64,000 bases of DNA from Candidatus Omnitrophota bacterium. Its GTDB lineage: Bacteria > Omnitrophota > Gorgyraeia > Zapsychrales > Fredricksoniimonadaceae. Below, piece by piece: positions 2,646 through 59,537 of this stretch. The DNA lies in NCBI GenBank assembly GCA_028865345.1, contig JAGWKL010000004.1, positions 8,457-72,456 of the forward strand, written 5' to 3'. Within the stretch, counting starts at the first letter, position 1, and each line of letters starts with the position of its first letter. The notes under the pieces are model-generated. The model was not told the DNA's origin, made no database searches, and saw nothing but the letters and a program-made list of their open reading frames with translations. The position numbers and the translations under genes are program-made.

Positions 2646-4280
2646 TCACCCTAAAACTCTTATGGCTTCATCAATGGAAGTCTCGCCCTTGGCAATCAAC
2701 GCCTTGGCATCATCGATCAATGTCTTGTAGGTTCCTCTTTGTCTTAATAAAGCATAAATCTCTCCCAGGGAATTTTTTCCGATAAGTTCCTTAATTTCCT
2801 GGTCGATAAGCAAAACTTCCCCCACCACAGTTCTTCCTAGAAAACCATTCCGGCATCTCCTGCACCCCTGGGGCCTGAACATAGACTGAATGTCCCCGTC
2901 TAAGTATTTTGCCTTGTAGGCCTCGAATTTGTCCCTGACCGCGGTAAACGGTTCCTTGCAAAACGGGCAGAGTTTTCTTACCAAACGCTGCGACACAACG
3001 GCAACCAGACAACTTGAAATATTGACCGTGTCGACCCCTAAATCTTTGAGCCTCAAAATTGCCGAAACGGGATCGTTCGTATGCAGGGTGGAAAAAATCT
3101 GCAGCCCGGTGTTGGCCGCACGGATGGCTTCCTGGGCCGTTTCCCTGTCCCGTATTTCTCCGATCAATATGGCATTAGGATCTTGCCTTAAGAATGACCT
3201 TGTGGCCTTGCCGAATGTCAGGTCTTGGGCAGGATTGACTTCAACTTGTGCTATCAAGGAATGCGTGATCTCAACGGGGTCTTCGATGGTCAGTATAATT
3301 TTGGATATCGACTTGATCTGGTTCAAAACAGCCGACAAGGTTGTTGATTTGCCGCTGCCGGTGGGGCCTGTGATAATGATTAATCCGTGGGGAACAACGA
3401 TGGCCTGATCGATCATTTTCCGGTTATGTTCTGAAAATCCAAGACTCTCCAATGGGATAGCGGCCCGTTCCTTGTCCAAAAGTCTTAATACGATCCTGGG
3501 TCCGTGGATGGTCGGAGTTTGAGCAAACCTGACATCTACGGTTTTGGCCATTTTTTTGAATTCATAAAAAAAGCTACCGTCCTGAATTCCATAATCGCAA
3601 GGCCTCAGACCGCATTTTGTCAGCAGAATATTGGCCAACTTCTGGATATATTCGGGTTTTAAACAGGTGATGGATGCGCAAATACCGTCAATCCTGAACC
3701 TGATGTCCGTGGTCTTGCCGGTCGGTTCAACATGAATGTCCGTGCTGCGGGTGATGATGGCCAAATTGATGATCTCATTGAGCCAGGAAGCCAGAGCATC
3801 AATCCCCTCTGATTTAAGGGATTCGATACGGACAAGGAGTTTGGCCCTGTTTTGTTCCAGAACAATCAGATCCAAGGCGTTTCTCACATCGCACTCCGGG
3901 CCGATGTAAAAATTCACACCCGTATGCCCGAAAATGCTTTTAAGATAATCGGTGATTTCCACATTATCGATAAAAGAAACAACGAATGACGGAATTACGG
4001 AACCGTTCTTTAAAGGATATATTTGGTGCCGGCAAAAATAATCCAGACCGATTTTCTCGATGGCTGCGTGATCAGGCACATATTGACTCCTAAAGCACTT
4101 CCAATTTATCTGTTTTGACAAACACTCGGCAAGCTGGTGGTCATTGATAAAGCCGTGATGTTTTAAGATCGCCCCCAGGTGGAGTCCGGGGTTCAATTTT
4201 TTATACTCTAGGCAGTGGTTGAGCTCTTCCTGTGTGATGAGCTTTTCTTCCGTCAATATTTGCCCAAGTGGTTCAAGCAT
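2646..4280 (-). CDS. gspE: Type II secretion / type IV pilus assembly ATPase (GspE/PilB/MshE family)
   Basis: Walker A motif GPTGSGKSTT is present. A tetracysteine zinc motif (CPFCKEP...CRRCRNG) is present. The N-terminal segment HLGAILKHHGFINDHQLAECLSKQ resembles an MshEN c-di-GMP-binding motif. ATG at 4278-4280. Confidence 0.9.
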   Translation of the reverse strand: MLEPLGQILTEEKLITQEELNHCLEYKKLNPGLHLGAILKHHGFINDHQLAECLSKQINWKCFRSQYVPDHAAIEKIGLDYFCRHQIYPLKNGSVIPSFVVSFIDNVEITDYLKSIFGHTGVNFYIGPECDVRNALDLIVLEQNRAKLLVRIESLKSEGIDALASWLNEIINLAIITRSTDIHVEPTGKTTDIRFRIDGICASITCLKPEYIQKLANILLTKCGLRPCDYGIQDGSFFYEFKKMAKTVDVRFAQTPTIHGPRIVLRLLDKERAAIPLESLGFSEHNRKMIDQAIVVPHGLIIITGPTGSGKSTTLSAVLNQIKSISKIILTIEDPVEITHSLIAQVEVNPAQDLTFGKATRSFLRQDPNAILIGEIRDRETAQEAIRAANTGLQIFSTLHTNDPVSAILRLKDLGVDTVNISSCLVAVVSQRLVRKLCPFCKEPFTAVRDKFEAYKAKYLDGDIQSMFRPQGCRRCRNGFLGRTVVGEVLLIDQEIKELIGKNSLGEIYALLRQRGTYKTLIDDAKALIAKGETSIDEAIRVLG

Positions 4281-4282
4281 AT

Positions 4283-4816
4283 TTATTCAGGTTTAAAATC
4301 AAAATTTTTGGTCAAATTTTGCGGCTTAAAATGCAGGGTTATGCTTGAGTCTGATATAGACACAACCCTGATATTGTCCGTCGGGTATGAGTTGTTCCTG
4401 ACTTGATAATCCGTCCCGTTGATGGAAATGATGGCCTCTTCTCGGCCCTTGTCCCCTCCGATGTAATCAACGGCCACCTGGGGCAGGTTGCTTGTGGCTT
4501 CAAGGGAAGGCTCGCTAAACGCCCCGGTATTTTCCTTTTGCAACTTGGCGATCTGTGCTTGCGCTTTCTCTTCTTCCAGTTCAAGATTGGTTTGTTCAAG
4601 CTTTATCTTTAAATCCTTGGTTATTCTTTGTTGTTTACGGTCCAATCCTAATTGTTCCTGAATGGCAGTATCTTCCATATTTTCGCCGCTCTGCGGATTG
4701 CTTAAATGCGCTGAAGGATCAGATTTTTCCGCCCATGGTTCTCCGGGCCCCAGGATCAACCCGACAGGCAGCAATATCAATAAAATGGGTTTGAAGGCCA
4801 AGTTTCTAAAGTCCAT
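4283..4816 (-). CDS. PilP/GspC-like periplasmic assembly protein (signal peptide, coiled coil, C-terminal beta domain)
   Basis: AAGGAG ribosome-binding site and ATG at 4814-4816. A signal peptide is followed by a coiled coil. The C-terminus VAVDYIGGDKGREEAIISINGTDYQVR...IRVVSISDSSITL fits the PilP / GspC HR-domain pattern. The stop overlaps the gspE start region. Confidence 0.45.
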   Translation of the reverse strand: MDFRNLAFKPILLILLPVGLILGPGEPWAEKSDPSAHLSNPQSGENMEDTAIQEQLGLDRKQQRITKDLKIKLEQTNLELEEEKAQAQIAKLQKENTGAFSEPSLEATSNLPQVAVDYIGGDKGREEAIISINGTDYQVRNNSYPTDNIRVVSISDSSITLHFKPQNLTKNFDFKPE

Positions 4817-5300
4817 ATATTTCTCCTTTAATGATCAAATTATTATTATCTTTTGAGATCTCGGAAGCCAAAAAGTCCGTGTTGGCCTCCAAAGTATGGA
4901 TGTCGTCCAATACAGCCCCCATGTCCGTTTCCCTGGAAAATTTATCGATGACTATGCGGATTTTCAGACCGCGAACGCCCCTGTAAGCGGTTTTCTCATA
5001 ATGAGTTGAAATGTCCGGCACTTCCATGGCCCCTTCCAACTGGATATTCATATTTGTCCCGCTGGTACTCTCCAGAAGCCTGGTCTCATTTAAAACAGCG
5101 TTATACGCCACATGGAGCTCCACCGGCGGCTGCCTTGGCAGTAGTTCCTTATCCTTGATGGCCTGTTGCATGCCGTTGATTTTGTCCTGCAATAGAGCAT
5201 AATCATTGTTGTCTTGTTCAATCTGTGAATTCATGGAAACTCCAAGATTAACTAAAACCACCGTCACGGCCAAAGAAATTAAAATGATCATTTTGTTCAT
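4806..5300 (-). CDS. PilO/GspM-like bitopic inner-membrane protein
   Basis: An N-terminal transmembrane helix (MNKMIILISLAVTVVLVNLGV) is followed by a coiled coil and a periplasmic alpha/beta domain. An ATGA overlap joins it to the upstream gene. Confidence 0.45.
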   Translation of the reverse strand: MNKMIILISLAVTVVLVNLGVSMNSQIEQDNNDYALLQDKINGMQQAIKDKELLPRQPPVELHVAYNAVLNETRLLESTSGTNMNIQLEGAMEVPDISTHYEKTAYRGVRGLKIRIVIDKFSRETDMGAVLDDIHTLEANTDFLASEISKDNNNLIIKGEIYGL

Positions 5301-6484
5301 AGGCTGACTGTCAGGCGTTTGCCGGGCTGGCCATTGACAAAAACATCCTCAATTTCCGCATCCTTCAGTAATTTTACCTGGGGGACAGGATCAAAAATGC
5401 CCTGCTCATCCGCGAACAGAGTCATCTCGACCTCCCATTTGTCCTTTTTATGAAAATCGAAAGATTCTACAGTATAGGAAGCCGGTATCAACTCAAGCAT
5501 GGAAAGATAAAAGACGCCGTAATTCAAGGTTTTCTGTCTCTTTAAATCAGACCTGTACGTTTCGAGGTCTAATATCCTTAACTGCGCCTCCAGGCGTTCC
5601 GATCTTTGTTGGAAGGACTTCATTTTATGGTTTATAACCTCCAGCTTTAAGCTGTTAAATAAAAAATAAAGAAAACCGGCGGCCACAACACACAAAGATA
5701 TGACAACGGCCCTGACCCTCTGTTTTAATGCCTTCTCTTTTCTTTTTTTGAACTCTTCTTCCGGCAATTTGTACTTGATCAAAGAACCATTGATCTCCAA
5801 ACCTTCAATGGCCGGGTGACGCGCATCCAGATATTCAACCTGGAAGTTTTCTTTGTTCTTTGAGATTTCATCCACCAGGCCTCGGCTGTTGACGATAATG
5901 ACGGAATCCGTCGCTTTCTTGTCCAGAAAACCGTCAAACTTCTTATAAAAATCGATCTGGGAACGCTTGATCTCGGGAAGGATGTCTTCCCCGTTATTGG
6001 GGATGGTCCTTGTCCGGCTGAATTTCAAGCCATCAAAGACAGTCAACAGCCTTGACCTTTCCCAATCATCGATAAACACGATGGTTTTATTCAGATTGAC
6101 GGTCTTGTGGATCAAGGCATTACGTAAGGCAATCCCGTAAGGAATGAATGTTCTGATTTTATCCGGGGGGATCAAAGAATATACTTCCCGGACCTTCTGT
6201 TCCCTGATGCCGATGACCTGGAAAAGATTGGTATCGATCTTTTCATCCTGGATGACATACGCCTCATGCTGGTAGAGATCCTTAAACTTACGGACAAGGA
6301 TGCTGTCCTTTTTCTCCGGAGGGTATTCCACTGCGGCCGCGATGATCACATCCGTGTCCACCACGCACACACCCGCTTCATTGATCGACGGGAAAATAGG
6401 ATCACAACCGGGCCTTTTGTCTATAATACGCACCCCTTCATCATCTTTGAAGAGAATCGTATCGTTGAAAATAAAATAATTCAT
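5297..6484 (-). CDS. GspL-like assembly protein (PilM-like cytoplasmic domain fused to a PilN-like TM/periplasmic region)
   Basis: 395 aa. A roughly 250-aa cytoplasmic domain is followed by a single transmembrane helix (AVVISLCVVAAGFLYFLFNSL), a coiled coil and a C-terminal periplasmic domain. ATGA start/stop overlaps occur on both sides. Confidence 0.5.
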   Translation of the reverse strand: MNYFIFNDTILFKDDEGVRIIDKRPGCDPIFPSINEAGVCVVDTDVIIAAAVEYPPEKKDSILVRKFKDLYQHEAYVIQDEKIDTNLFQVIGIREQKVREVYSLIPPDKIRTFIPYGIALRNALIHKTVNLNKTIVFIDDWERSRLLTVFDGLKFSRTRTIPNNGEDILPEIKRSQIDFYKKFDGFLDKKATDSVIIVNSRGLVDEISKNKENFQVEYLDARHPAIEGLEINGSLIKYKLPEEEFKKRKEKALKQRVRAVVISLCVVAAGFLYFLFNSLKLEVINHKMKSFQQRSERLEAQLRILDLETYRSDLKRQKTLNYGVFYLSMLELIPASYTVESFDFHKKDKWEVEMTLFADEQGIFDPVPQVKLLKDAEIEDVFVNGQPGKRLTVSL

Positions 6485-8322
6485 ATGTTGTTAATAATAT
6501 TCTTGGGCGTAATCAGGATCACCAACTCCGTGCGTTGATTGGATTTGGCCTGGTACTGGAAAGCCTTGCCTAAAAAAGGAATTTTGTCCAGATAAGGAAC
6601 CCCTTCCATGGACTTTTTTCTGGTATCGCTGATAAGCCCCCCCAGGATCAGGGTCTTCCCGGGCTCTATCCCGACATTGGTAGTGATACTTTTGGTGGAA
6701 ACCTGCGGTTCCTGGATGGTCAGGCCGTTGCCGGCAGGCACATTGGTCAATGAATCAAGGGTGTTCAAGGCCGCCGATATGTTCAAAACCGTCTTTTTTC
6801 GTTCGATCTTTGCTTCCAATCTCATGGTCAAACCATCCGATACCTGGGACGTGATCACGTTGGATTGGGATATATTGTTCCCTATGGTCTGGCCTGTCCC
6901 TGAGATATAAGGAATGCTGGTCACTTCCTGGATAACGCAAGGGAACATATTGGACACCGTGATCGAAGGCTTGCTGATGACATTGACATTCCCCATCGAA
7001 TCCAGGGCCTTAAGCACCATGGATACCCCGCCTTTCGTCGTACCGCTCCCTGCATCCGGACCGGTCGCCGATAAAGTCAACAACTGCCCGCTCAAAAACC
7101 CCGATGATGAAAAATCTGTCGAGGCCGTAATGTTGTTCAATCCGGCCAGTTTCTTGGCAATGGCATTCCAATCAATACCCGTCTCATGGTCTGCAGATAA
7201 GGTGACCTCAATGATCTGTATTTCAAAACTCTGCTGCCTGCTTAAGGATTCATTGATGGTTGAGACCAATTCATCGATCTTATCTAATACTCCTGGTTTA
7301 TCCGTTACGATGATAGAGCCGCTTACTTTATTAATAGAGTAGCTGCCTACCTTCGGGGTTATTAATGACTTAACGTTGTCTTCCAGATCACTCCACAGGG
7401 AAAGCTTAGGCGAGATGTTTTCATAATAAATCTTTGTCCCTACCTTAATATCTTGATTTTGCTGGCTGGTTGTGGTGATGGTATTGTTATTATTTTGATT
7501 GTCCGCGAAAGACTCATTGGAGGTCTCATCGGTAAAAGACTGGTCCACGGCAGGCATATTGATATTAAAAATCCTGGTTTCGGTCTCTGTAATGATCAAA
7601 TCCTCCTGGGAAACCTTAAATCCATACCCGAATTTATAAAGAAGGCTTTTCAATGCCCTCCAGACTTCGATGTTCTCCAGATTAATGGATGTTTTCTGGG
7701 CATCGATGTCAGGCGTGGTAATCACGTTGTATGCTGTGACCTGGGAAATGGTGGAAAAATAAATCCTTAAAGGCAGATTATTTCCCTTAAGCGTGATTTT
7801 CAAATTCAATTGCGGCGGCAGGTTGAGGGACTGCTGCGGCCTTGGGGGCGAGGCATTATGAGGGGCCTCAACCGACGGTGAAGTTGACGGCTGCAACTCT
7901 CTTTTTTCAACCGCAGATTCCGGGACAACATCCATTTTAAGGGCGATGGTTCTATTCTCATTTTTTCCCTTGGACGTCGCCAACCCGCGGATGACAAGCT
8001 TTGTATAAAAATCATCCTTGGCCACGCATCGCAGCACATACTCTTCACCCGAAACTCCGCCTACCGTCATCTCGGCGACCTCGGTGTTTGTCGGCATCAA
8101 TTCCAGGGTATCAGGCTCTTTGTCATTCCTCTGAATGACATAGGTATCGGCGCCGAAACCTCTCACCACGCTGACAATGGGCTCAGGAAAAACTACGGCG
8201 GTCACATGGTCCCGCTTCACATGCACATAAACCTCCCCGCCATCGTAAACATGATCTTTGATTTCCGCCTGTGCTGTGGACGTAAAGCAAGCGAACAGAA
8301 AAACAAGGAGAAAATTATTCAT
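6481..8322 (-). CDS. Secretin (GspD/PilQ/MshL family outer-membrane channel)
   Basis: Signal peptide MNNFLLVFLFACFTSTAQA. The C-terminal secretin domain carries GVPYLDKIPFLGKAF...RTELVILITPKNI. An N0-like domain (LKITLKGNNLPL...) is preceded by an extra roughly 100-aa N-terminal domain and a Pro-rich linker. Confidence 0.85.
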   Translation of the reverse strand: MNNFLLVFLFACFTSTAQAEIKDHVYDGGEVYVHVKRDHVTAVVFPEPIVSVVRGFGADTYVIQRNDKEPDTLELMPTNTEVAEMTVGGVSGEEYVLRCVAKDDFYTKLVIRGLATSKGKNENRTIALKMDVVPESAVEKRELQPSTSPSVEAPHNASPPRPQQSLNLPPQLNLKITLKGNNLPLRIYFSTISQVTAYNVITTPDIDAQKTSINLENIEVWRALKSLLYKFGYGFKVSQEDLIITETETRIFNINMPAVDQSFTDETSNESFADNQNNNNTITTTSQQNQDIKVGTKIYYENISPKLSLWSDLEDNVKSLITPKVGSYSINKVSGSIIVTDKPGVLDKIDELVSTINESLSRQQSFEIQIIEVTLSADHETGIDWNAIAKKLAGLNNITASTDFSSSGFLSGQLLTLSATGPDAGSGTTKGGVSMVLKALDSMGNVNVISKPSITVSNMFPCVIQEVTSIPYISGTGQTIGNNISQSNVITSQVSDGLTMRLEAKIERKKTVLNISAALNTLDSLTNVPAGNGLTIQEPQVSTKSITTNVGIEPGKTLILGGLISDTRKKSMEGVPYLDKIPFLGKAFQYQAKSNQRTELVILITPKNIINNI

Positions 8323-8460: not shown

Positions 8461-9657
8461 TTATAACTGTATCCCGAAAGAAGGCAGCATGCTGATAATA
8501 CCGGTGGCGAAGATGAGGGCGATAAAAAACCAATAGATGAATTTATTGCCCCCCTGAAGGCTCAGCTCGCCCATCAGTTTCCTGTCCGAGGCAAGCATCC
8601 CTAATATAACGGCGGGGGCGATCAAGACCACGATCTGAAGGACCATCAAGTTAAGGGCGAGTTTGATGAGATTGAATGAAAAAAGCGGGATGATGACCGC
8701 GGGGATTGATTCAACCAGATACACCTTAAACCAGTGTTTCTTGCCCCACCCCACAGCCTCGGTCACGCCCCAGCAGCTGCCCAGGGAAATGACGATAAGC
8801 GCGATAAAAGACGCGGTGATAAGGCCCACCCCAAAAACATACGGGGCAAAATGCCCGGCCACCGAGGCAAGGCTTTGCGAAAGCACCTTGGGCGAGGCAA
8901 AATCCAGACCGTTGACGTCGATGCCGATGGCGGAGACGGCAATGGCCACCATGATCAACTCGGAAAAGATGGCGCCCACCAGGGTCTCAAACCTGACGGC
9001 CCAGATATTACTTTTGGCCGTGCCTTTTTCCGCAGTGGCGGAAACCTGATAGAACAACATAAAAGGCATGATGACCGCCCCGATGTTGGCGGCCAGCATG
9101 AAGATAAAGTCCGGTGATTTCGAGAAATAAAACGGCGTGACCTCGATGCCGTTGTGCGCCGTCATAACGGCGGCCACGATCCACACGACGGAGAAAATGA
9201 CGGAAATGATCAACAGCGGCTTTTCAGCCTCGGCATATTTTTTATTGTAGACCACCAGCAGATGGGCCAAAAACGCCAGCGGCACGGAAATCCACGCAGA
9301 AACCCCCATCATCTGGAAACCGACGGCGATGCCGGTATATTCCACAATATAGCTGATGACGTCCACCAGGGCCATGGGAATGGCGCAAAGCACGGCAATG
9401 CGCCTGCGGTAGTTTTCCCTGATCAATTCCCCCAGGCCTTTGCCGGTGGCAACACCCACGCGGCCCGCCACTTCCTGGACCACGTATAAAGGAATGACCA
9501 GGACCATGATGAACCAGACAAGTTTGGTGCCGTACCGCGCGCCGCTGTCCGCGGCCGTGATGGCGCTGGCCGCGTCAACGTCGGCGATCATGACGAGCCA
9601 GGCCGGCCCCCATGTCATGAAAATCTGCCCCATCCTGGCCTTTAATTCTTTCATCAT
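8461..9657 (-). CDS. NRAMP-family divalent-metal transporter homologue, atypical
   Basis: A roughly 11-TM protein with the same overall topology and block structure as MntH at 13658..15082. In TM1, ADVDA replaces the canonical MDPGN. In TM6 it has IMPF rather than MPH. Confidence 0.6.
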   Translation of the reverse strand: MMKELKARMGQIFMTWGPAWLVMIADVDAASAITAADSGARYGTKLVWFIMVLVIPLYVVQEVAGRVGVATGKGLGELIRENYRRRIAVLCAIPMALVDVISYIVEYTGIAVGFQMMGVSAWISVPLAFLAHLLVVYNKKYAEAEKPLLIISVIFSVVWIVAAVMTAHNGIEVTPFYFSKSPDFIFMLAANIGAVIMPFMLFYQVSATAEKGTAKSNIWAVRFETLVGAIFSELIMVAIAVSAIGIDVNGLDFASPKVLSQSLASVAGHFAPYVFGVGLITASFIALIVISLGSCWGVTEAVGWGKKHWFKVYLVESIPAVIIPLFSFNLIKLALNLMVLQIVVLIAPAVILGMLASDRKLMGELSLQGGNKFIYWFFIALIFATGIISMLPSFGIQL

Positions 9658-9658
9658 A

Positions 9659-10402
9659 TTAAAACTCGTATTCCATGATCCATTTCAACTCCCCGCGGGG
9701 AGCGGCATCGGAGATGCCAAATAAATAGCCGATATTATAATTGATATGTCTGAATATGTGGCCGTAAAAACACGGGCCGATCTGATGGCTTTGTTGATTA
9801 TAATCTATCTGATGGGAGATGGCACTAAAATCGTTCCAATATTCAAAACCCGGCTCGAAATATCTAGACAGGCGATACCTTGTACTCCATGATATCCCGC
9901 CGTCGATATGGGAGTCTGCCCCGCCGCCGGCTTCCTTATTAATGCTGATGTTCAGGACATCGGAAACTTTTTGAAAATCCTTCTCCAGCAAAATCTTTGC
10001 TTCAAACTGCCCTGTCTGTTTATGGGTCACAGGCGCCTCATAAGCAAGATAAATACCGGGGTCAAGCCAATATTTTCCCCGGGGCGCCAGTTGAAAAATA
10101 TTTTCCCATTCCAAATGGGTGGTCTGGACCGATGAGATGGCCTCATCCGTCGGCACGGCTTCGGTCTCAAGCTCCAATTCCGTGTGCCAAAAACTATTGA
10201 CCCCGTAACCGATGGTATTCTTATATTCCTGCACCGCATTCTTGTTTTTGGCGTGGTCAAAATCGTACTGCCCGGTCGTTTCATATTCCCATTCCCCTGT
10301 TTCCGCGTAAGGCTGATAAACCAGCCTCTCGGCAAAAGCGGGACGGGCCCAAACAAAGATGCCGATAAAAGCAATGATGATCGGAATATATTTATTGAGC
10401 AT
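9659..10402 (-). CDS. Outer-membrane beta-barrel (porin-like) protein
   Basis: Signal peptide MLNKYIPIIIAFIGIFVWARPAFA|E. The sequence has alternating hydrophobic beta-strand patterning and aromatic girdles, and ends in a terminal Phe (..MEYEF). Confidence 0.55.
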   Translation of the reverse strand: MLNKYIPIIIAFIGIFVWARPAFAERLVYQPYAETGEWEYETTGQYDFDHAKNKNAVQEYKNTIGYGVNSFWHTELELETEAVPTDEAISSVQTTHLEWENIFQLAPRGKYWLDPGIYLAYEAPVTHKQTGQFEAKILLEKDFQKVSDVLNISINKEAGGGADSHIDGGISWSTRYRLSRYFEPGFEYWNDFSAISHQIDYNQQSHQIGPCFYGHIFRHINYNIGYLFGISDAAPRGELKWIMEYEF

Positions 10403-10727
10403 TGATGACCCCCCTGGAATCTTGATGATAATCCGCCCAGTAACCATATTTACCGGGCTTCAGCGGCCCGATATAAACCATGATCTTTTGACGGCCTTTG
10501 ACGACCTGCTCGCGGTCCAGGTCGAAACTTTCAAACTCTTCGGGAGTTGGGTCTTGATTATCGACCGTTATTTGCAGCTTCTTGGCGGCAGGGACGTTCA
10601 GCACCGGAGGGATAAATTGATGGTTTTTAATGACAATCGTGTCCGGCCGATCGGCGCCGGAGGATTGGGCCAGGCACAGGGTCGGACAACACACACAGAG
10701 ACCGAGAATTAATACGCTAGCTTTCAC
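10392..10727 (-). CDS. Periplasmic cupredoxin-like domain protein (EfeO N-terminal / FtrB-like)
   Basis: Probable GTG start at 10725-10727, giving the signal peptide VKASVLILGLCVCCPTLCLAQS. The mature region TIVIKNHQFIPPVLNVPAAKKLQITVDNQDPTPEEFESFDLDREQVVKGRQKIMVYIGPLKPGKYGYW matches the cupredoxin-like fold pattern. It has no Cys ligand for a type-1 copper site. Confidence 0.4.
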   Translation of the reverse strand: MKASVLILGLCVCCPTLCLAQSSGADRPDTIVIKNHQFIPPVLNVPAAKKLQITVDNQDPTPEEFESFDLDREQVVKGRQKIMVYIGPLKPGKYGYWADYHQDSRGVINAQ

Positions 10728-10728
10728 C

Positions 10729-10950
10729 TTATTTGATTCCTTTCTCTTGGACAGGCCATTTCTTCCAATCTTCGCCCCAGCAACGGGAACAGTCTGAAAG
10801 CATCTCTTCAAAAGTCACCAGGCATATTTGCTTGCTGCGGGGGCATTTGAGTTCATAACCCTTGCCGGTCTTGATATAGAGAAGCTTACCAGCGTCGGAC
10901 CTTACTTCCGTGACCTTTTCTCCATTGCGGATGATGCATCTTTCTTTCAT
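10729..10950 (-). CDS. Small cysteine-rich protein (73 aa; CX6C...CX2C), possible metal-binding protein
   Basis: MKERCIIRNGEKVTEVRSDAGKLLYIKTGKGYELKCPRSKQICLVTFEEMLSDCSRCWGEDWKKWP has five Cys. It is the first gene of the NRAMP-like operon. No family was recognised. Confidence 0.35.
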   Translation of the reverse strand: MKERCIIRNGEKVTEVRSDAGKLLYIKTGKGYELKCPRSKQICLVTFEEMLSDCSRCWGEDWKKWPVQEKGIK

Positions 10951-10960
10951 GTCTCTTCGG

Positions 10961-11000
10961 AAGAAATAAAAAGCCCTTCTTCTTGATTAGAAAAGGGCTC
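10961..11000 (-). terminator. Rho-independent terminator-like hairpin
   Basis: Minus strand: AGCCCTT, a 14-nt loop, AAGGGCT, then TTTTTATTTCTT. It lies downstream of the 11106..11486 gene. Confidence 0.45.
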
Positions 11001-11105
11001 AGGATGCCTGGATCGCGCGCCTCTGTTGAATGTGCATAATTAAGTCAACTAATGACTTAGTTTAGCGTGAAACTTTATTTTGTCAAGAAAAAAACAACAG
11101 GGGGT

Positions 11106-11486
11106 TTACAAGCGGGCGAGCCACAATAAAATAATAGGGATGGCTGTTCCTAAAACCAAACAAACCCAGACGACCCAGGGCTTGGTGTACTTAAAAGCCA
11201 TCATGATGCCAAGCACAGTGGTCGTCAATAATCCTACAACCATCAAAAGGACCAAGTACCGGAAAGGGACTGAAGATTTCGGAACCTTTCGGCTGTCAAC
11301 CCACCGCTGATTCTTGTGGACCTGCGAAAGGGATTTAATGATCGCCGGCGGCTTATAGGTACCGTCGCGGCTTGGCACATGCAAACCGAAGGTCTGCCAG
11401 GCCCCGCTGATAAGGTAAAAGACGAGCAAGGGGGCAAAAAAAACACCAAGGTACAAATGGATATTGCGCATTTGCTTGATGTTCAT
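11106..11486 (-). CDS. Small membrane protein (PepSY-associated-TM-like, 3 TM helices)
   Basis: MRNIHLYLGVFFAPLLVFYLISGAW followed by two further hydrophobic helices. Its start overlaps the stop of the upstream dehydrogenase by 4 nt. Confidence 0.4.
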   Translation of the reverse strand: MNIKQMRNIHLYLGVFFAPLLVFYLISGAWQTFGLHVPSRDGTYKPPAIIKSLSQVHKNQRWVDSRKVPKSSVPFRYLVLLMVVGLLTTTVLGIMMAFKYTKPWVVWVCLVLGTAIPIILLWLARL

Positions 11487-12772
11487 AACCTGACCACCTT
11501 TTTATCTTTCTTGCCCTTATAGATATTGCGCGTGTCAAAAATCAACCGCGCATTTTTGTAAATGAAGGCATAGTCCAACGCAGAATGGTCCACGGCCACC
11601 ACAACCACGTCATAACTTTTCAATTTCGCCGCCGTCAGGTCAATGGCTTTAAGGTCCAGCCCGTCCAGCTTCAAGAACGGGATCAGCGGATCGTAATAAT
11701 CCACCCTGGTTTGCTTTCTTAACAACTCAATGAGGCTTATGGCCGGCGATTTTCTTAAGTCTTTGACATCTTTCTTATACGTCACCCCCAAAACCAGGAC
11801 CCTGGCGGTTTTAAAGGGCTTATGCAGCAGTTTCTTCAACCGGTTGACGGCGAAAGCCGGCATGTCATGGTTGGTGTCCGCGGCGAGCTTGATGAATTTG
11901 CAACTGAAATTATAATGCTTGGCTTTCCAATATAAATACAGCGGGTCCTCGGGAATGCAGTGCCCCCCCACGCCCAAACCCGGATAAAACGGCATAAAGC
12001 CGAAGGGCTTGGTCTTGGCGGCATCGATGACCTCCCAAACATCAATGCCCGAGGCATGGCACATCTGAGCTATTTCATTGATCCACCCGATATTGACAAT
12101 ACGGAAAGAGTTTTCCAGCAATTTGGTCATTTCCGCGGCCTTGGGGCTTGACACCTGGTGCACATTCTTGATGATCTGCCGATAAAGCAGCCCGGAGAGT
12201 TCCGTGCAGGTTTCGGTCAAGCCCCCCACAACCTTGGGGATCCGCGTGACATCGAAACTCCTGTTGCCGGGGTCGATGCGTTCGGGGGAAAAAGCGACAT
12301 AAAAATCCCTGCCCGCCCTCAAACCGCTGTTTTCCAGCTGAGGCTTGATAAGCTCCTCCGTCGTCCCCGGATAGGTGGTGCTTTCCAGAACAATAAGCAT
12401 GTCCTTATGCAAATGCCGGGCTACGCTCTTGACCGCGCTGACTATATAGGAAATGTCCGGCGTGTATTTGCGTTTAAGGGGCGTGGGCACACAAATGATG
12501 ACGACATCGGCCTGGGACAACAAATCAAAATCCGTGGACACATCAAAAACTTTCTTGGCCGACATACGGGCGATCAACCGGCTTGGCACGTCGGTAATAT
12601 AGCTTTCCCCTCTTTTGATACGTTCCACCCTCTGTTTGTCCGTATCGATGCCGGAGGTTTTATAACCTTTTTGCGCAAAAGCCAGCGCCAGCGGCAGGCC
12701 GACATACCCCATACCAATGACCGCCACGTGGGCCTTTTTAGCGACGATCTTATTTTTGAGCTTTTTCGACAT
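11483..12772 (-). CDS. Nucleotide-sugar dehydrogenase (UDP-N-acetyl-D-glucosamine / mannosamine 6-dehydrogenase, WbpA/WecC-like)
   Basis: N-terminal Rossmann motif VAVIGMGYVGLPLA. Catalytic region GFMPFYPGLGVGGHCIPEDP. About 429 aa, the typical UDP-glucose / ManNAc dehydrogenase family size. Confidence 0.85.
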   Translation of the reverse strand: MSKKLKNKIVAKKAHVAVIGMGYVGLPLALAFAQKGYKTSGIDTDKQRVERIKRGESYITDVPSRLIARMSAKKVFDVSTDFDLLSQADVVIICVPTPLKRKYTPDISYIVSAVKSVARHLHKDMLIVLESTTYPGTTEELIKPQLENSGLRAGRDFYVAFSPERIDPGNRSFDVTRIPKVVGGLTETCTELSGLLYRQIIKNVHQVSSPKAAEMTKLLENSFRIVNIGWINEIAQMCHASGIDVWEVIDAAKTKPFGFMPFYPGLGVGGHCIPEDPLYLYWKAKHYNFSCKFIKLAADTNHDMPAFAVNRLKKLLHKPFKTARVLVLGVTYKKDVKDLRKSPAISLIELLRKQTRVDYYDPLIPFLKLDGLDLKAIDLTAAKLKSYDVVVVAVDHSALDYAFIYKNARLIFDTRNIYKGKKDKKVVRL

Positions 12773-13657: not shown

Positions 13658-15082
13658 TTATCCGCCGGTGATGACTTGCCAGGCCTGTTTTAACGCATCA
13701 GGCAAGCCGTAGAAGTCAAAGGCCGTTATAAGCAGCGCCGAAGCCCACCCGGCGATGAGCAAAAACCAACCGGGCCGCCATTGCCCCATCCGCTTGCGGG
13801 AACCGGCAAGGTGCAGCAGAGGAAACATGGCAAACGGAAGCTGCAGGGCCAGCACCACCTGGCTTAAGACTATAAGGTCGTTGACGTTATTAGCCCCACG
13901 CACACCAACAAAGATAGCCGTAGGGATAATGGCCAGGGAACGGGTGATGAGCCGCCGCAGCCATGGGGCAATCTTCCAGCGCATGAAGCCCTCCATCACC
14001 ACCTGTCCTGCCATTGTACCAACAATGGTAGCACTTTGTCCGCTGGCCAGCAATGCAATGGCAAAAAACATGCTTGCAGCAGCGGTTCCCATCAGCGGCG
14101 CCAACGTCAGGTTGGCCGCCTGTATCCAATCTGTCGAATCATTAAACGCCACCACCCCTCCGCCCGGAACCGTGACACTGGTCTTACCGTAAAAAACAAT
14201 CGCGGCCAGCACCAAAATGGCGGCGTTGATCAGGAAGGCAACCGACAAATTGACACCGGTATCGATGGTGTTAAACCGGATTGCTCTTTTGATGGATTCA
14301 TCGTCTCTCTGGAATTTGCGGCTCTGGACCAAGGCAGGATGCAGATACAGCACATGCGGCATGACCGTTGCTCCGATGATGCCGATGGCCACATAAACCA
14401 TGCCGGGGGAACTCAACTTAAGACTGATCATGCCCCGGCCCATTTCCAGGAAGCTCGGCTGTGTCTGCGGCAGGACGAAAATCTCAATGAAGTAACAAAC
14501 GCCGATAGTTGCGACCAGCAACAGGACGATGGCTTCAATGGCCCGCATCCCAAACCGTTGCAATGCCAATAAAAGCAGGACGTCAGCGCCGGTGATGATG
14601 ACCCCCCAGAAAATGGGAATGTGGAACAACATGTTCAGCGCCACCGCACCACCCAGCACTTCAGCCAAATCGCAAGCTATAATGGCAATTTCCGCCATGA
14701 GCCAGTTTGGCACCCGTGTCCACTTGGGGTACCATTCATATAAGCATTGGGCCAAGTCGCGCCCGGTCGCGATCCCGAGCCGTGTGGCAATGACTTGGAG
14801 GAAAATGGCCATGATACTGGCCAAGGCCACCACCCACAAGAGCCCATATTTGAATTGTGCCCCGCCCTGCAGATCGGTGCCCCAATTGCCAGGGTCCATG
14901 TAGGCCACACTGACCAAAACTCCAGGGCCGAAATAGGCGAGCATTTGCTTCCAAAAACCGACATGCGACAATGGCACATTCACGCTACTGTGCATTCCTT
15001 CCAGAGACACGGCGCCAGGAGGCGGATTCGAAACGGAAGCTCCAAGAGGGTTCTTTGTTGATTGAGGATTTCCCATTGCCAC
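13658..15082 (-). CDS. mntH: NRAMP-family Mn2+/Fe2+ transporter
   Basis: Canonical motifs AYMDPGNWGTDLQGGAQFKYGLLW (TM1) and GATVMPHVLYLH (TM6). The ORF-track start is GTG. The first ATG is at 15074-15076. Confidence 0.9.
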   Translation of the reverse strand: MAMGNPQSTKNPLGASVSNPPPGAVSLEGMHSSVNVPLSHVGFWKQMLAYFGPGVLVSVAYMDPGNWGTDLQGGAQFKYGLLWVVALASIMAIFLQVIATRLGIATGRDLAQCLYEWYPKWTRVPNWLMAEIAIIACDLAEVLGGAVALNMLFHIPIFWGVIITGADVLLLLALQRFGMRAIEAIVLLLVATIGVCYFIEIFVLPQTQPSFLEMGRGMISLKLSSPGMVYVAIGIIGATVMPHVLYLHPALVQSRKFQRDDESIKRAIRFNTIDTGVNLSVAFLINAAILVLAAIVFYGKTSVTVPGGGVVAFNDSTDWIQAANLTLAPLMGTAAASMFFAIALLASGQSATIVGTMAGQVVMEGFMRWKIAPWLRRLITRSLAIIPTAIFVGVRGANNVNDLIVLSQVVLALQLPFAMFPLLHLAGSRKRMGQWRPGWFLLIAGWASALLITAFDFYGLPDALKQAWQVITGG

Positions 15083-15145: not shown

Positions 15146-15607
15146 TTATTTCTGGCTTGACTGACAGTCTTTACATATGCCATAAAAATGCATTTCATGG
15201 CCCAAGATCTTGAATCCCTGCCTCTCTAAATAAGGGTGGTAAACATCTTCCTCTTCCTTGTCTGGGAATTCGATGAACCGATGGCAGCGCACGCATTGGG
15301 CATGGTGGTGCGGTTTTTCATCATAGACATGTTCAAAATGCCGGTGCTTATCCCCAAAGGCGGTTTCACGGATGATGCCGGCTTCCAATAGATCATGCAG
15401 CACACGGAAAACGGTCGGCCGGGAGACTTTCAACCTTTTGTGCAGGCACTCCTTCGCCAGTTCTTCAGCCGTAAAATGGCCGTGGGAGCGCATGACCTCG
15501 TTAAAAATGATTTCCCGGCCCTGACTGGTCCTGCGCCCCGACTTGGACAAATGGCGCAGGAATTTCAGGCGCTCATCCGTGACCGTTTTGGAGTCAGCCT
15601 TGCTCAT
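15146..15607 (-). CDS. fur: Fur-family metalloregulator (Fur/Mur)
   Basis: DNA-binding helix SRPTVFRVLHDLLEAGII. Metal-site motifs HFEHVYDEKPHHHAQCVRCHRFIEF...CKDC. Confidence 0.8.
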   Translation of the reverse strand: MSKADSKTVTDERLKFLRHLSKSGRRTSQGREIIFNEVMRSHGHFTAEELAKECLHKRLKVSRPTVFRVLHDLLEAGIIRETAFGDKHRHFEHVYDEKPHHHAQCVRCHRFIEFPDKEEEDVYHPYLERQGFKILGHEMHFYGICKDCQSSQK

Positions 15608-15608
15608 A

Positions 15609-15623
15609 TGATATAGTGTATCA
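15609..15623. promoter_or_regulatory. Fur-box-like inverted repeat (7-1-7) abutting the fur start codon
   Basis: TGATATA-G-TGTATCA. The arms are TGATATA and TGATACA, matching 6 of 7 as reverse complements, in the same layout as the TGATAAT-N-ATTATCA Fur box. It lies immediately 5' of the fur ATG (15605-15607). Confidence 0.45.
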
Positions 15624-15671
15624 TTTAATGGCGGGAAGTCAAACTTTTGTAACTCTTTGTCACAAAAGGCC

Positions 15672-59308: not shown

Positions 59309-59537
59309 AAATCCCTTTCTTATCGTTGGGGACAGTCCCTCGCTAATATAAAAATCCCTTAACATAAGAGACTTTAAGTTTACCGGTAACTTCAAAAATG
59401 TACATGGTCTGTTTCCACTTTTTACTGCCTTTTTTCTACCTAATATTTCCCATCCGCCGCACACACCAAAAAGGGGACACTTAACGACGTGTCCCCTTTC
59501 TCCAGCCGGCGGCATACCTTTTGTCTCGCCGCCTTAT

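Follow-up and report, generated by a model that had tools for sequence, protein, structure and literature searches.

An NRAMP-related transporter in the permease slot of a cupredoxin/barrel operon from Omnitrophota: a candidate trans-envelope route for divalent transition metals

Why should an outer-membrane beta-barrel, a periplasmic cupredoxin-like protein and an atypical relative of the NRAMP metal transporters be encoded in one operon? The question is raised by four genes, here g1 to g4, on the minus strand (10950-8461) of a 64,000-nucleotide stretch of contig JAGWKL010000004.1 from a Candidatus Omnitrophota bacterium; this whole stretch is called the window below. Function has been assigned only to one Mg transporter and one putative Mn importer among the NRAMP-related proteins, a large and paraphyletic group, and the operon links one clade of it, with the motif DxxS-AxxM, to an FtrB-like protein and a new barrel family, which gives a testable substrate hypothesis. 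The best explanation of our data is that the operon derives from a cupredoxin/FTR1/barrel iron system in which FTR1 has been replaced by an NRAMP-related transporter. On balance we favour the reading that it serves to take up a divalent transition metal across the envelope; Fe(II) is the likeliest candidate and Mn(II) the main alternative.

Operon anatomy and the NRAMP-related transporter

The first gene, g1 (10950-10729; all four lie on the minus strand), encodes a 73-amino-acid (aa) protein, predicted to be cytoplasmic, with a four-Cys site and a basic C-terminal helix. It is followed by g2 (10727-10392), encoding a periplasmic cupredoxin-like protein of the FtrB/EfeO type, 111 aa from a GTG start, by g3 (10402-9659), which starts with ATG and encodes a predicted 12-stranded outer-membrane beta-barrel of 247 aa with an acidic lumen, and by g4 (9657-8461), encoding a 398-aa NRAMP-related protein, a non-canonical PF01566 inner-membrane transporter with DxxS-AxxM. 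One nucleotide separates g1 from g2 and g3 from g4, and g2 overlaps g3 by 11 nucleotides; these coordinates agree with the compact four-gene transcription unit, with junctions of 0-11 nucleotides, that a first-pass annotation made from the letters of the window had described. The GTG at 10727 is the likeliest start of g2, and a longer alternative, TTG at 10811, would run into g1. A consensus promoter scan and a reading of the junctions revealed no notable internal promoter or terminator inside the operon, and its downstream neighbour, a secretin gene (6481-8322), has a promoter of its own. The four-gene arrangement is not due to chance, as the trio of cupredoxin, barrel and NRAMP-like gene recurs in related genomes, as had been expected: it stands in 7 of the 80 related loci inspected and on further metagenome contigs. 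The g1 protein has five Cys, as noticed before, and four of them are conserved among 48 homologues, in the pattern C36-x6-C43-x10-C54-x2-C57.

Judged by its sequence, g4 stands outside the canonical NRAMP proteins. Its residues 34-366 match PF01566 (Nramp, E=3.5e-49), opposite profile positions 3-354 of 357, but it falls below all NCBIfam NRAMP cut-offs, with 80.7 bits against the MntH model NF001923 (cut-off 430) and 51.9 bits against TIGR01197 (cut-off 272.5). The neighbouring canonical MntH of the window (13658-15082, minus strand; DPGN and MPH intact) exceeds both, with 498 and 373 bits respectively, and is ~25% identical to g4. Among all PDB sequences the best match of g4 is clearly the Mg transporter EleNRMT of Eggerthella lenta (7QIA, E=4e-42), DraNramp being found at 5e-14. 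In HMMER and MAFFT alignments, the first transmembrane segment (TM1) of g4 reads IADVDAAS and its TM6 reads GAVIMPFMLFYQ, opposite MAGNDAGG and GTTIAPWMMFFN in EleNRMT and IAYMDPGN and GATVMPHVIYLH in DraNramp. V-D-A-A-S stands opposite M-D-P-G-N, with Asp kept, Asn replaced by Ser and Pro-Gly by Ala-Ala, and in TM6 G-A-V-I-M-P-F stands opposite A-T-V-M-P-H of MntH, with Ala and Met kept and His replaced by Phe. The second TM6b His of NRAMP is Gln in g4, and the TM3 Glu is kept (YIVEYTG). The signature residues are D28, S31, A194 and M197, that is, DxxS-AxxM. An atypical NRAMP homologue without DPGN and MPH had been noted in this position by eye, and HMMER alignments with DraNramp, EleNRMT and the MntH of the window confirm it; the by-eye pairing of IMPF with VMPH in TM6 was right, whereas that in TM1 was two residues out of register, VDAAS and not ADVDA being the counterpart of the canonical segment.

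In published notation NRAMP proteins are DxxN-AxxM, NRAT proteins DxxN-AxxT and NRMT proteins DxxG-TxxA/T, and the TM6 Met selects transition metals over Ca and Mg (Ramanadane et al., PMC8806188). Neither the NRMT nor the NRAT signature is present in g4; the Asp that all these proteins require is kept. Because the TM6 Ala and Met are kept, a transition metal is a more likely substrate than Mg or Al, and the shift of specificity to Mg2+ or Al3+ hinted at in the first-pass annotation appears unlikely. All 120 listed g4 homologues (66-100% identity) have ADVDAAS and GAVIMPFMLFYQ unchanged. A search of 1.84 billion cluster representatives returned 74 clusters at E<=1e-30 and 951 at E<=1e-10, and in an alignment of 89 full-length representatives the pattern AD.DA.S / GAVIMP[FW]M reaches down to ~30% identity, the DxxS-AxxM group being separate there from the NRMT type (AGNDAGG / GTTI[AT]P) and from a DxxN / GATFNPW type. 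Such proteins belong to what has been called the 'outgroup' or 'NRAMP-related' part of PF01566 (PMC9606685).

With canonical NRAMP proteins (MntH, DraNramp and the clade B member BfraNramp) g4 has in common the LeuT fold, the TM1 Asp, the TM6 Ala/Met and the TM3 Glu. EleNRMT/NrmT is likewise a non-canonical PF01566 protein without the TM6b histidines or the proton pathway, and since g4 and EleNRMT both lack these, uncoupled transport is likely. Unlike EleNRMT, g4 has DxxS-AxxM with the Met retained, an iron-type gene context and no M-box riboswitch; neither an M-box nor any other Rfam family was found in the window or in the operon leader, although a riboswitch is not obligatory for NRMTs. That proton-independent uniport of transition metals exists in the NRAMP superfamily is known from BfraNramp.

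Homologues of g4 with 66-69% identity are found alone (L003, L095), directly behind a Fur gene (L001:5499-7314, L094:4410-6224) and beside a DtxR-family repressor (L093:4155-5000). Regulators of these families are those expected for Fe or Mn importers. A perfect palindrome, ATTAGCATATACTAAT, lies in the intergenic region which the g4 homologue and the repressor of L093 share. A barrel beside the Fur/NRAMP-like pair of L094 was considered and rejected: the 284-aa neighbour is an alpha-helical DsbD-like membrane protein, and the cupredoxins of this locus carry Cys copper sites and are unrelated.

Partners of the transporter and the permease slot

The cupredoxin-like protein g2 matches PF13473 (Cupredoxin_1, E=1.6e-22), carries a signal peptide for Sec export (MKASVLILGLCVCCPTLCLA, ending before QSS) and aligns with the sequence of the Brucella FtrB crystal structure 8VUK (E=1.1e-8), in which Mn(II), as a mimic of Fe(II), is bound at E84, E86, E93 and D119. 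The three Glu of this Fe/Mn site are retained in g2 (EEFES...RE opposite AEFES...KE of 8VUK), as are D119 and H121; Ala stands in place of D118, a proposed ligand of Cu(II) (A-D-Y-H versus D-D-F-H). As this one proposed Cu ligand is absent, we take g2 for a probable shuttle and not for a copper ferroxidase. The idea that loss of D118 is specific to cupredoxins paired with NRAMP-like permeases had to be rejected, since Gly or Ala occupies this position in nearly all barrel-associated cupredoxin homologues, FTR1 partners included. The earlier view of g2, as a cupredoxin like those of FtrABCD/EfeUOB systems but with no Cys at the Cu site, is supported.

The g3 protein has no match in Pfam-A or NCBIfam at E<=0.1, and its 105 homologues in the protein collection are all unannotated, with a Pfam domain only where FTR1 is fused. 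Its signal peptide ends in ...ARPAFA before ERL, and its AlphaFold2 model has 12 long antiparallel strands (predicted local distance difference test, pLDDT, 86; predicted template-modelling score, pTM, 0.79). A Foldseek comparison of the model with solved structures placed the 12-stranded FapF on top (E=2e-8, template-modelling score 0.63-0.72), and the other best matches, NanC, COG4313 and general porins, are all outer-membrane barrels. Members of the family end in ...EYEF or EYExxF, with an aromatic last residue. The signal peptide, the predicted fold and this C-terminal aromatic thus support the proposal that the third gene probably encodes an outer-membrane barrel. The window holds a secretin gene and a type II secretion/type IV pilus ATPase gene, and the secretin gene at 6481-8322 indicates a diderm organism. 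On the more polar side of the barrel strands, at least 10 residues with acidic or amide side chains are conserved (E39, E41, E100, Q104, D114, E134, N151, E187, E244 and E246 in g3), which in the model would fit a cation-selective lumen.

A scan with a barrel profile over one genome per species (185,579 species) gave 295 relatives, and the architectures of the best 80 of these 295 loci, from metagenome-assembled genomes of Omnitrophota, Planctomycetes, Alpha- and Gammaproteobacteria, were classed with single-domain profiles. At about 56 of these 80 loci the cupredoxin-barrel pair has an FTR1 permease as its partner, in most cases as a fusion with the barrel. The operon of the window has no FTR1 gene. 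A cupredoxin gene followed by a single FTR1::barrel open reading frame (ORF) of about 515-550 aa is the arrangement of 37 loci, and about 12 have cupredoxin, FTR1 and barrel as three separate genes in varying order. One locus (L074:4762-6714) appears to have the cupredoxin in frame with FTR1::barrel, and the ORF of L090 (4750-6660) may include the cupredoxin too. Two loci, L019 and L023, carry both permeases, in the order cupredoxin, FTR1::barrel, NRAMP-like; seven have cupredoxin, barrel and NRAMP-like genes, with or without g1; seven have cupredoxin and barrel with no adjacent permease; and ten have the barrel alone. Two RExxE motifs are present in 57 of 59 FTR1 domains, and Pfam confirmed PF03239 on the examples checked. 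The order is cupredoxin-barrel-FTR1 at L009, cupredoxin-FTR1-barrel at L010 and barrel-cupredoxin at L011. A gene for a three-domain multicopper oxidase (L010:1223-2725) lies 1 kb upstream of the L010 operon; a multicopper oxidase beside FTR1 recalls the yeast Fet3/Ftr1 pairing.

The clearest view of the permease slot comes from L016. It has g1, a cupredoxin gene and a barrel with 73% identity to that of the window, its promoter, operator and leader are the same, and an FTR1 gene sits in the exact slot of the NRAMP-like gene. The FTR1-type operon of L009 is also headed by g1. From this swap and from the shared g1 we conclude that the operon of the window is one state of a modular system. Across Omnitrophota the slot is filled by FTR1, by FTR1 and an NRAMP-like gene, or by the NRAMP-like gene alone, which is a lineage-specific occupant; in relatives 86% identical the whole order is conserved, with fur, mntH, a small ORF, UDP-glucose dehydrogenase, a 126-aa membrane protein, cupredoxin, barrel and NRAMP-like gene. 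The tripartite architecture of outer-membrane channel, periplasmic partner and NRAMP-like importer proposed in the first-pass annotation does recur, but it is not a free-standing invention: the module is widespread and usually contains FTR1.

The fusions, which lie outside the window, bear on how closely barrel and permease belong together. FTR1::barrel is one ORF at L060 (5137-6681), L039 (5029-6681), L023 (5179-6762) and 39 other loci. At 41-42 of the 42 junctions the last FTR1 helix leads into a linker of basic character, then into a hydrophobic stretch, and a small-x-small site comes directly before the conserved KVYSP with which mature stand-alone barrels start. The junction looks like an internal signal peptide, as far as its sequence can tell, and this suggests cleavage into one inner-membrane and one outer-membrane protein; the Bradyrhizobium FbcH precursor of cytochromes b and c1 is reportedly a precedent for such a cleaved fusion. 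The fusions support a tight one-to-one functional link of the barrel with an inner-membrane permease.

Among characterised systems, FtrABCD of Brucella, Bordetella and Burkholderia and EfeUOB share with the operon the cupredoxin of Cup-II/EfeO type with its Glu triad, and with most relatives of the module the inner-membrane partner, an FTR1/EfeU-type permease with two RExxE motifs. In contrast to these systems, the operon of the window has no FTR1, P19 (FtrA), polyferredoxin (FtrD), EfeB peroxidase or M75 domain, and it adds the outer-membrane barrel and the four-Cys protein. Absence of the proposed Cu ligand D118 makes a ferroxidase step doubtful here. An outer-membrane metal channel acting upstream of an NRAMP-type importer is known from MnoP and MntH of Bradyrhizobium japonicum (Hohle et al. 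2011, as cited in PMC9334652). The likeness to our operon is functional only, a dedicated outer-membrane channel together with an NRAMP-type inner-membrane importer. MnoP is a different, larger porin-type protein, and it is not known to share an operon with mntH or to have a cupredoxin as partner in the periplasm. To our knowledge very few dedicated outer-membrane channels for free Fe(II) or Mn(II) have been described, MnoP being the main example. MntG (YcsG) of B. subtilis is also NRAMP-related, with evidence for Mn2+ import, but belongs to another motif group ('G-motif 3', PMC12873925) and to a 5-oxoprolinase operon of a monoderm, without barrel or cupredoxin partners. The operon resembles a hybrid of the FtrABCD/EfeUOB and MnoP-MntH arrangements and is a member of neither. 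We found no published description of a cupredoxin/barrel/FTR1 or cupredoxin/barrel/NRAMP-like system in the open-access literature searched, in line with the earlier remark that the architecture is undescribed.

Proposed function and its rivals

For uptake of Fe(II), or alternatively Mn(II), the parts could work together as follows. The cation would cross the outer membrane through the 12-stranded barrel with its Glu-lined lumen, and the FtrB-like cupredoxin would capture it in the periplasm on the conserved Glu triad, probably as a shuttle. The NRAMP-related protein would then carry it inwards over the inner membrane, probably as a uniporter. Like EleNRMT and BfraNramp, it lacks the TM6b histidines and most residues of the proton path, so that coupling to protons is not expected. 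The four-Cys g1 may be an optional cytoplasmic accessory. More tentatively, and as something possible rather than probable, we envisage a general three-layer import line made of an acidic 12-stranded channel, a non-redox cupredoxin shuttle and an NRAMP-related uniporter, with a modular slot filled by FTR1 or by the NRAMP-related protein, and produced in most lineages as a permease-barrel polyprotein that is cleaved at an internal signal peptide.

Several observations weigh against these proposals. FTR1 imports iron after oxidation to Fe(III), a step for which an NRAMP fold has no need, and NRAMP folds carry M(II); for this reason the two kinds of permease need not be mechanistically equivalent. 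The TM10 Gln that takes part in metal binding in DraNramp and EleNRMT stands opposite Met or Leu of g4, in a gappy part of the alignment, and a 2026 preprint calls NRAMP-related proteins beyond the NRMT-like and MntG groups 'entirely uncharacterized' (PMC12873925). The operator of the operon, described below, is not Fur-box-like. The loci inspected for the barrel family are the best 80 of 295. The barrel-cupredoxin pair of L011 lies near the Mn exporters MntP, GDT1 and CDF. Finally, stand-alone barrels, with no FTR1 or NRAMP-like gene nearby, occur in heavy-metal islands, beside a CsoR-type repressor and a P1B-ATPase that has YHS and HMBD domains (L089:3132-5816), MerR-family regulators (L046:3107-3589 and L036:4297-4725), an RND pump with P-II and NicO (L021:1433-9033) and DUF305 (L051:4878-5225). 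The channel may therefore not be iron-specific.

The strongest rival to iron is manganese. The same architecture could be a dedicated high-affinity Mn(II) route that supplements MntH, in parallel to MnoP with MntH and to MntG; Mn(II) is bound by FtrB on the conserved Glu residues, a transition-metal substrate has been assigned among NRAMP-related proteins only to Mn importers (MntG/YcsG), EleNRMT also carries Mn, and several genomes have fur-mntH at a distance of 3-4 kb from the operon. The exporters beside the L011 pair point the same way, and the DtxR- and Fur-family neighbours of g4 homologues could be Mn sensors. However, the module is most often found with FTR1, which has two RExxE motifs and comes from an iron permease family, a canonical Mn-type MntH is already present, and the operator of the operon is unlike that of fur-mntH. 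We hold the manganese route to be unlikely, though not strongly so, and prefer Fe(II) for the operon of the window. If, instead, the barrel were a general channel for metal cations, the substrate could be another divalent heavy metal (Cu, Co, Ni, Zn, Cd or Pb). The contexts of the stand-alone barrels just listed, the multicopper oxidase upstream in L010 and the cupredoxin fold, which suggests copper, can be brought forward for it, and the FTR1 superfamily also includes the lead uptake protein PbrT. Such a substrate is nevertheless improbable for the window operon: its cupredoxin has neither a Cys/His/Met copper site nor the proposed Cu ligand D118, no efflux or resistance genes are found near this operon or its Omnitrophota relatives, and g4 homologues are linked to Fur/DtxR-type regulators, not to MerR, ArsR or CsoR.

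The remaining two alternatives concern g4 itself. The cupredoxin-barrel pair might serve some other inner-membrane partner, with g4 an independent importer that is merely adjacent, given that close g4 homologues exist without the module (L001, L003, L093-L095) and that at seven loci no permease adjoins the cupredoxin and barrel genes. We consider this quite improbable in view of the 1-nucleotide spacer between g3 and g4, the lack of a notable internal promoter or terminator, the order kept in at least 8 genomes whose barrels are only 67-75% identical to that of the window, and the position of g4 in exactly the slot that FTR1 has in L016; we presume that the parts cooperate physically. That g4 transports Mg(II) as NRMTs do is, in our opinion, very improbable. 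No other PDB match comes close to EleNRMT (E=4e-42), and NRMTs lack the TM6b histidines as well, but g4 has DxxS-AxxM and not DxxG-TxxA/T, the bulky Met being thought to leave no room for hydrated Mg; the NRMT-type sequences group apart from the DxxS-AxxM ones, no M-box or other riboswitch is found upstream, and the gene context is iron-type.

If Fe(II)/Mn(II) uptake is true, it would be the first functional assignment for the DxxS-AxxM branch of NRAMP-related proteins, and the barrels would form a new outer-membrane channel family for free metal cations. The operon is also a natural swap of two unrelated permease folds in one slot, and together with the FTR1::barrel fusions it bears on how metal-uptake systems are assembled and evolve. 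It is relevant, too, for the physiology of Omnitrophota, of which hardly any members are in culture.

Promoter, leader and neighbouring genes

A sigma-70-type promoter, TTGACA-16-TAAACT, with 10 of 12 consensus matches lies at 11059-11086 on the minus strand, and an operator-like perfect palindrome, TAAGTCAttagtTGACTTA (11041-11059), overlaps its -10 box and the predicted transcription start. This palindrome occurs once within the window, and its family consensus is ACTAAGTC-N7-GACTTAGT. The promoter, as TTCTTGACAAAA-N16/17-TAAACT, and the palindrome are kept upstream of Omnitrophota operons of both the NRAMP-like and the FTR1 type (L006-L009, L014-L020, L023, L025-L027 and L040), the promoter sequence being documented at L006, L014-L020 and L025. 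The palindrome looks like a protein-binding operator because its arms are conserved in sequence and do not co-vary. A putative repressor bound to it at the start site could gate the promoter.

Further downstream, the 5' leader contains a hairpin with a U-run, like an intrinsic terminator (10961-11000, minus strand), which ends ~10 nucleotides before the ATG of g1; RNA folding gives a stem of 11 pairs with UUUUUAUUUCUU after it. All related Omnitrophota leaders have a hairpin of this kind, and loci without g1 have a second, degenerate copy of the palindrome beyond the terminator. Transcription would have to read through this terminator, which may have a role in attenuation. A riboswitch or other known RNA in the leader was rejected: Rfam gave no family at the gathering threshold over the whole window and, for the leader, only chance-level matches at E<=10, and apart from the terminator hairpin the fold is no more stable than that of shuffled sequences (z=-0.99). 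Another perfect palindrome, AAGTTTACCGGTAAACTT (59376-59392), matched a relaxed operator pattern and is probably unrelated.

The canonical mntH discussed above lies with a Fur-family regulator gene (15146-15607, minus strand; PF01475, E=6.4e-23) 4 kb upstream of the operon, which confirms the pair reported in the first-pass annotation. A Fur-box-like palindrome, ATGATACACTATATCAT (15608-15624), abuts the start codon of fur and differs from the operator of the operon. Control of the operon by Fur through the fur-mntH box was rejected, since its palindrome is single in the window and unlike ATGATA...TATCAT at fur; no DtxR-family homologue was found in the window. As the operators differ, the operon is probably regulated differently from fur-mntH, as had been suspected.

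Directly upstream of the operon (11106-11486) is the gene for the 126-aa membrane protein, with three helices and a weak, sub-threshold likeness to cytochrome b561 (E=5e-4). The gene starts within, and overlaps by 4 nucleotides, the stop of a UDP-glucose/GDP-mannose dehydrogenase gene (11483-12772), and in close relatives this pair is syntenic directly upstream of the operon. Immediately downstream lies a type II secretion/type IV pilus-like cluster (2646-8322) with a T2SSE ATPase gene (2646-4280), unannotated genes (4283-6484) and the secretin gene (6481-8322).

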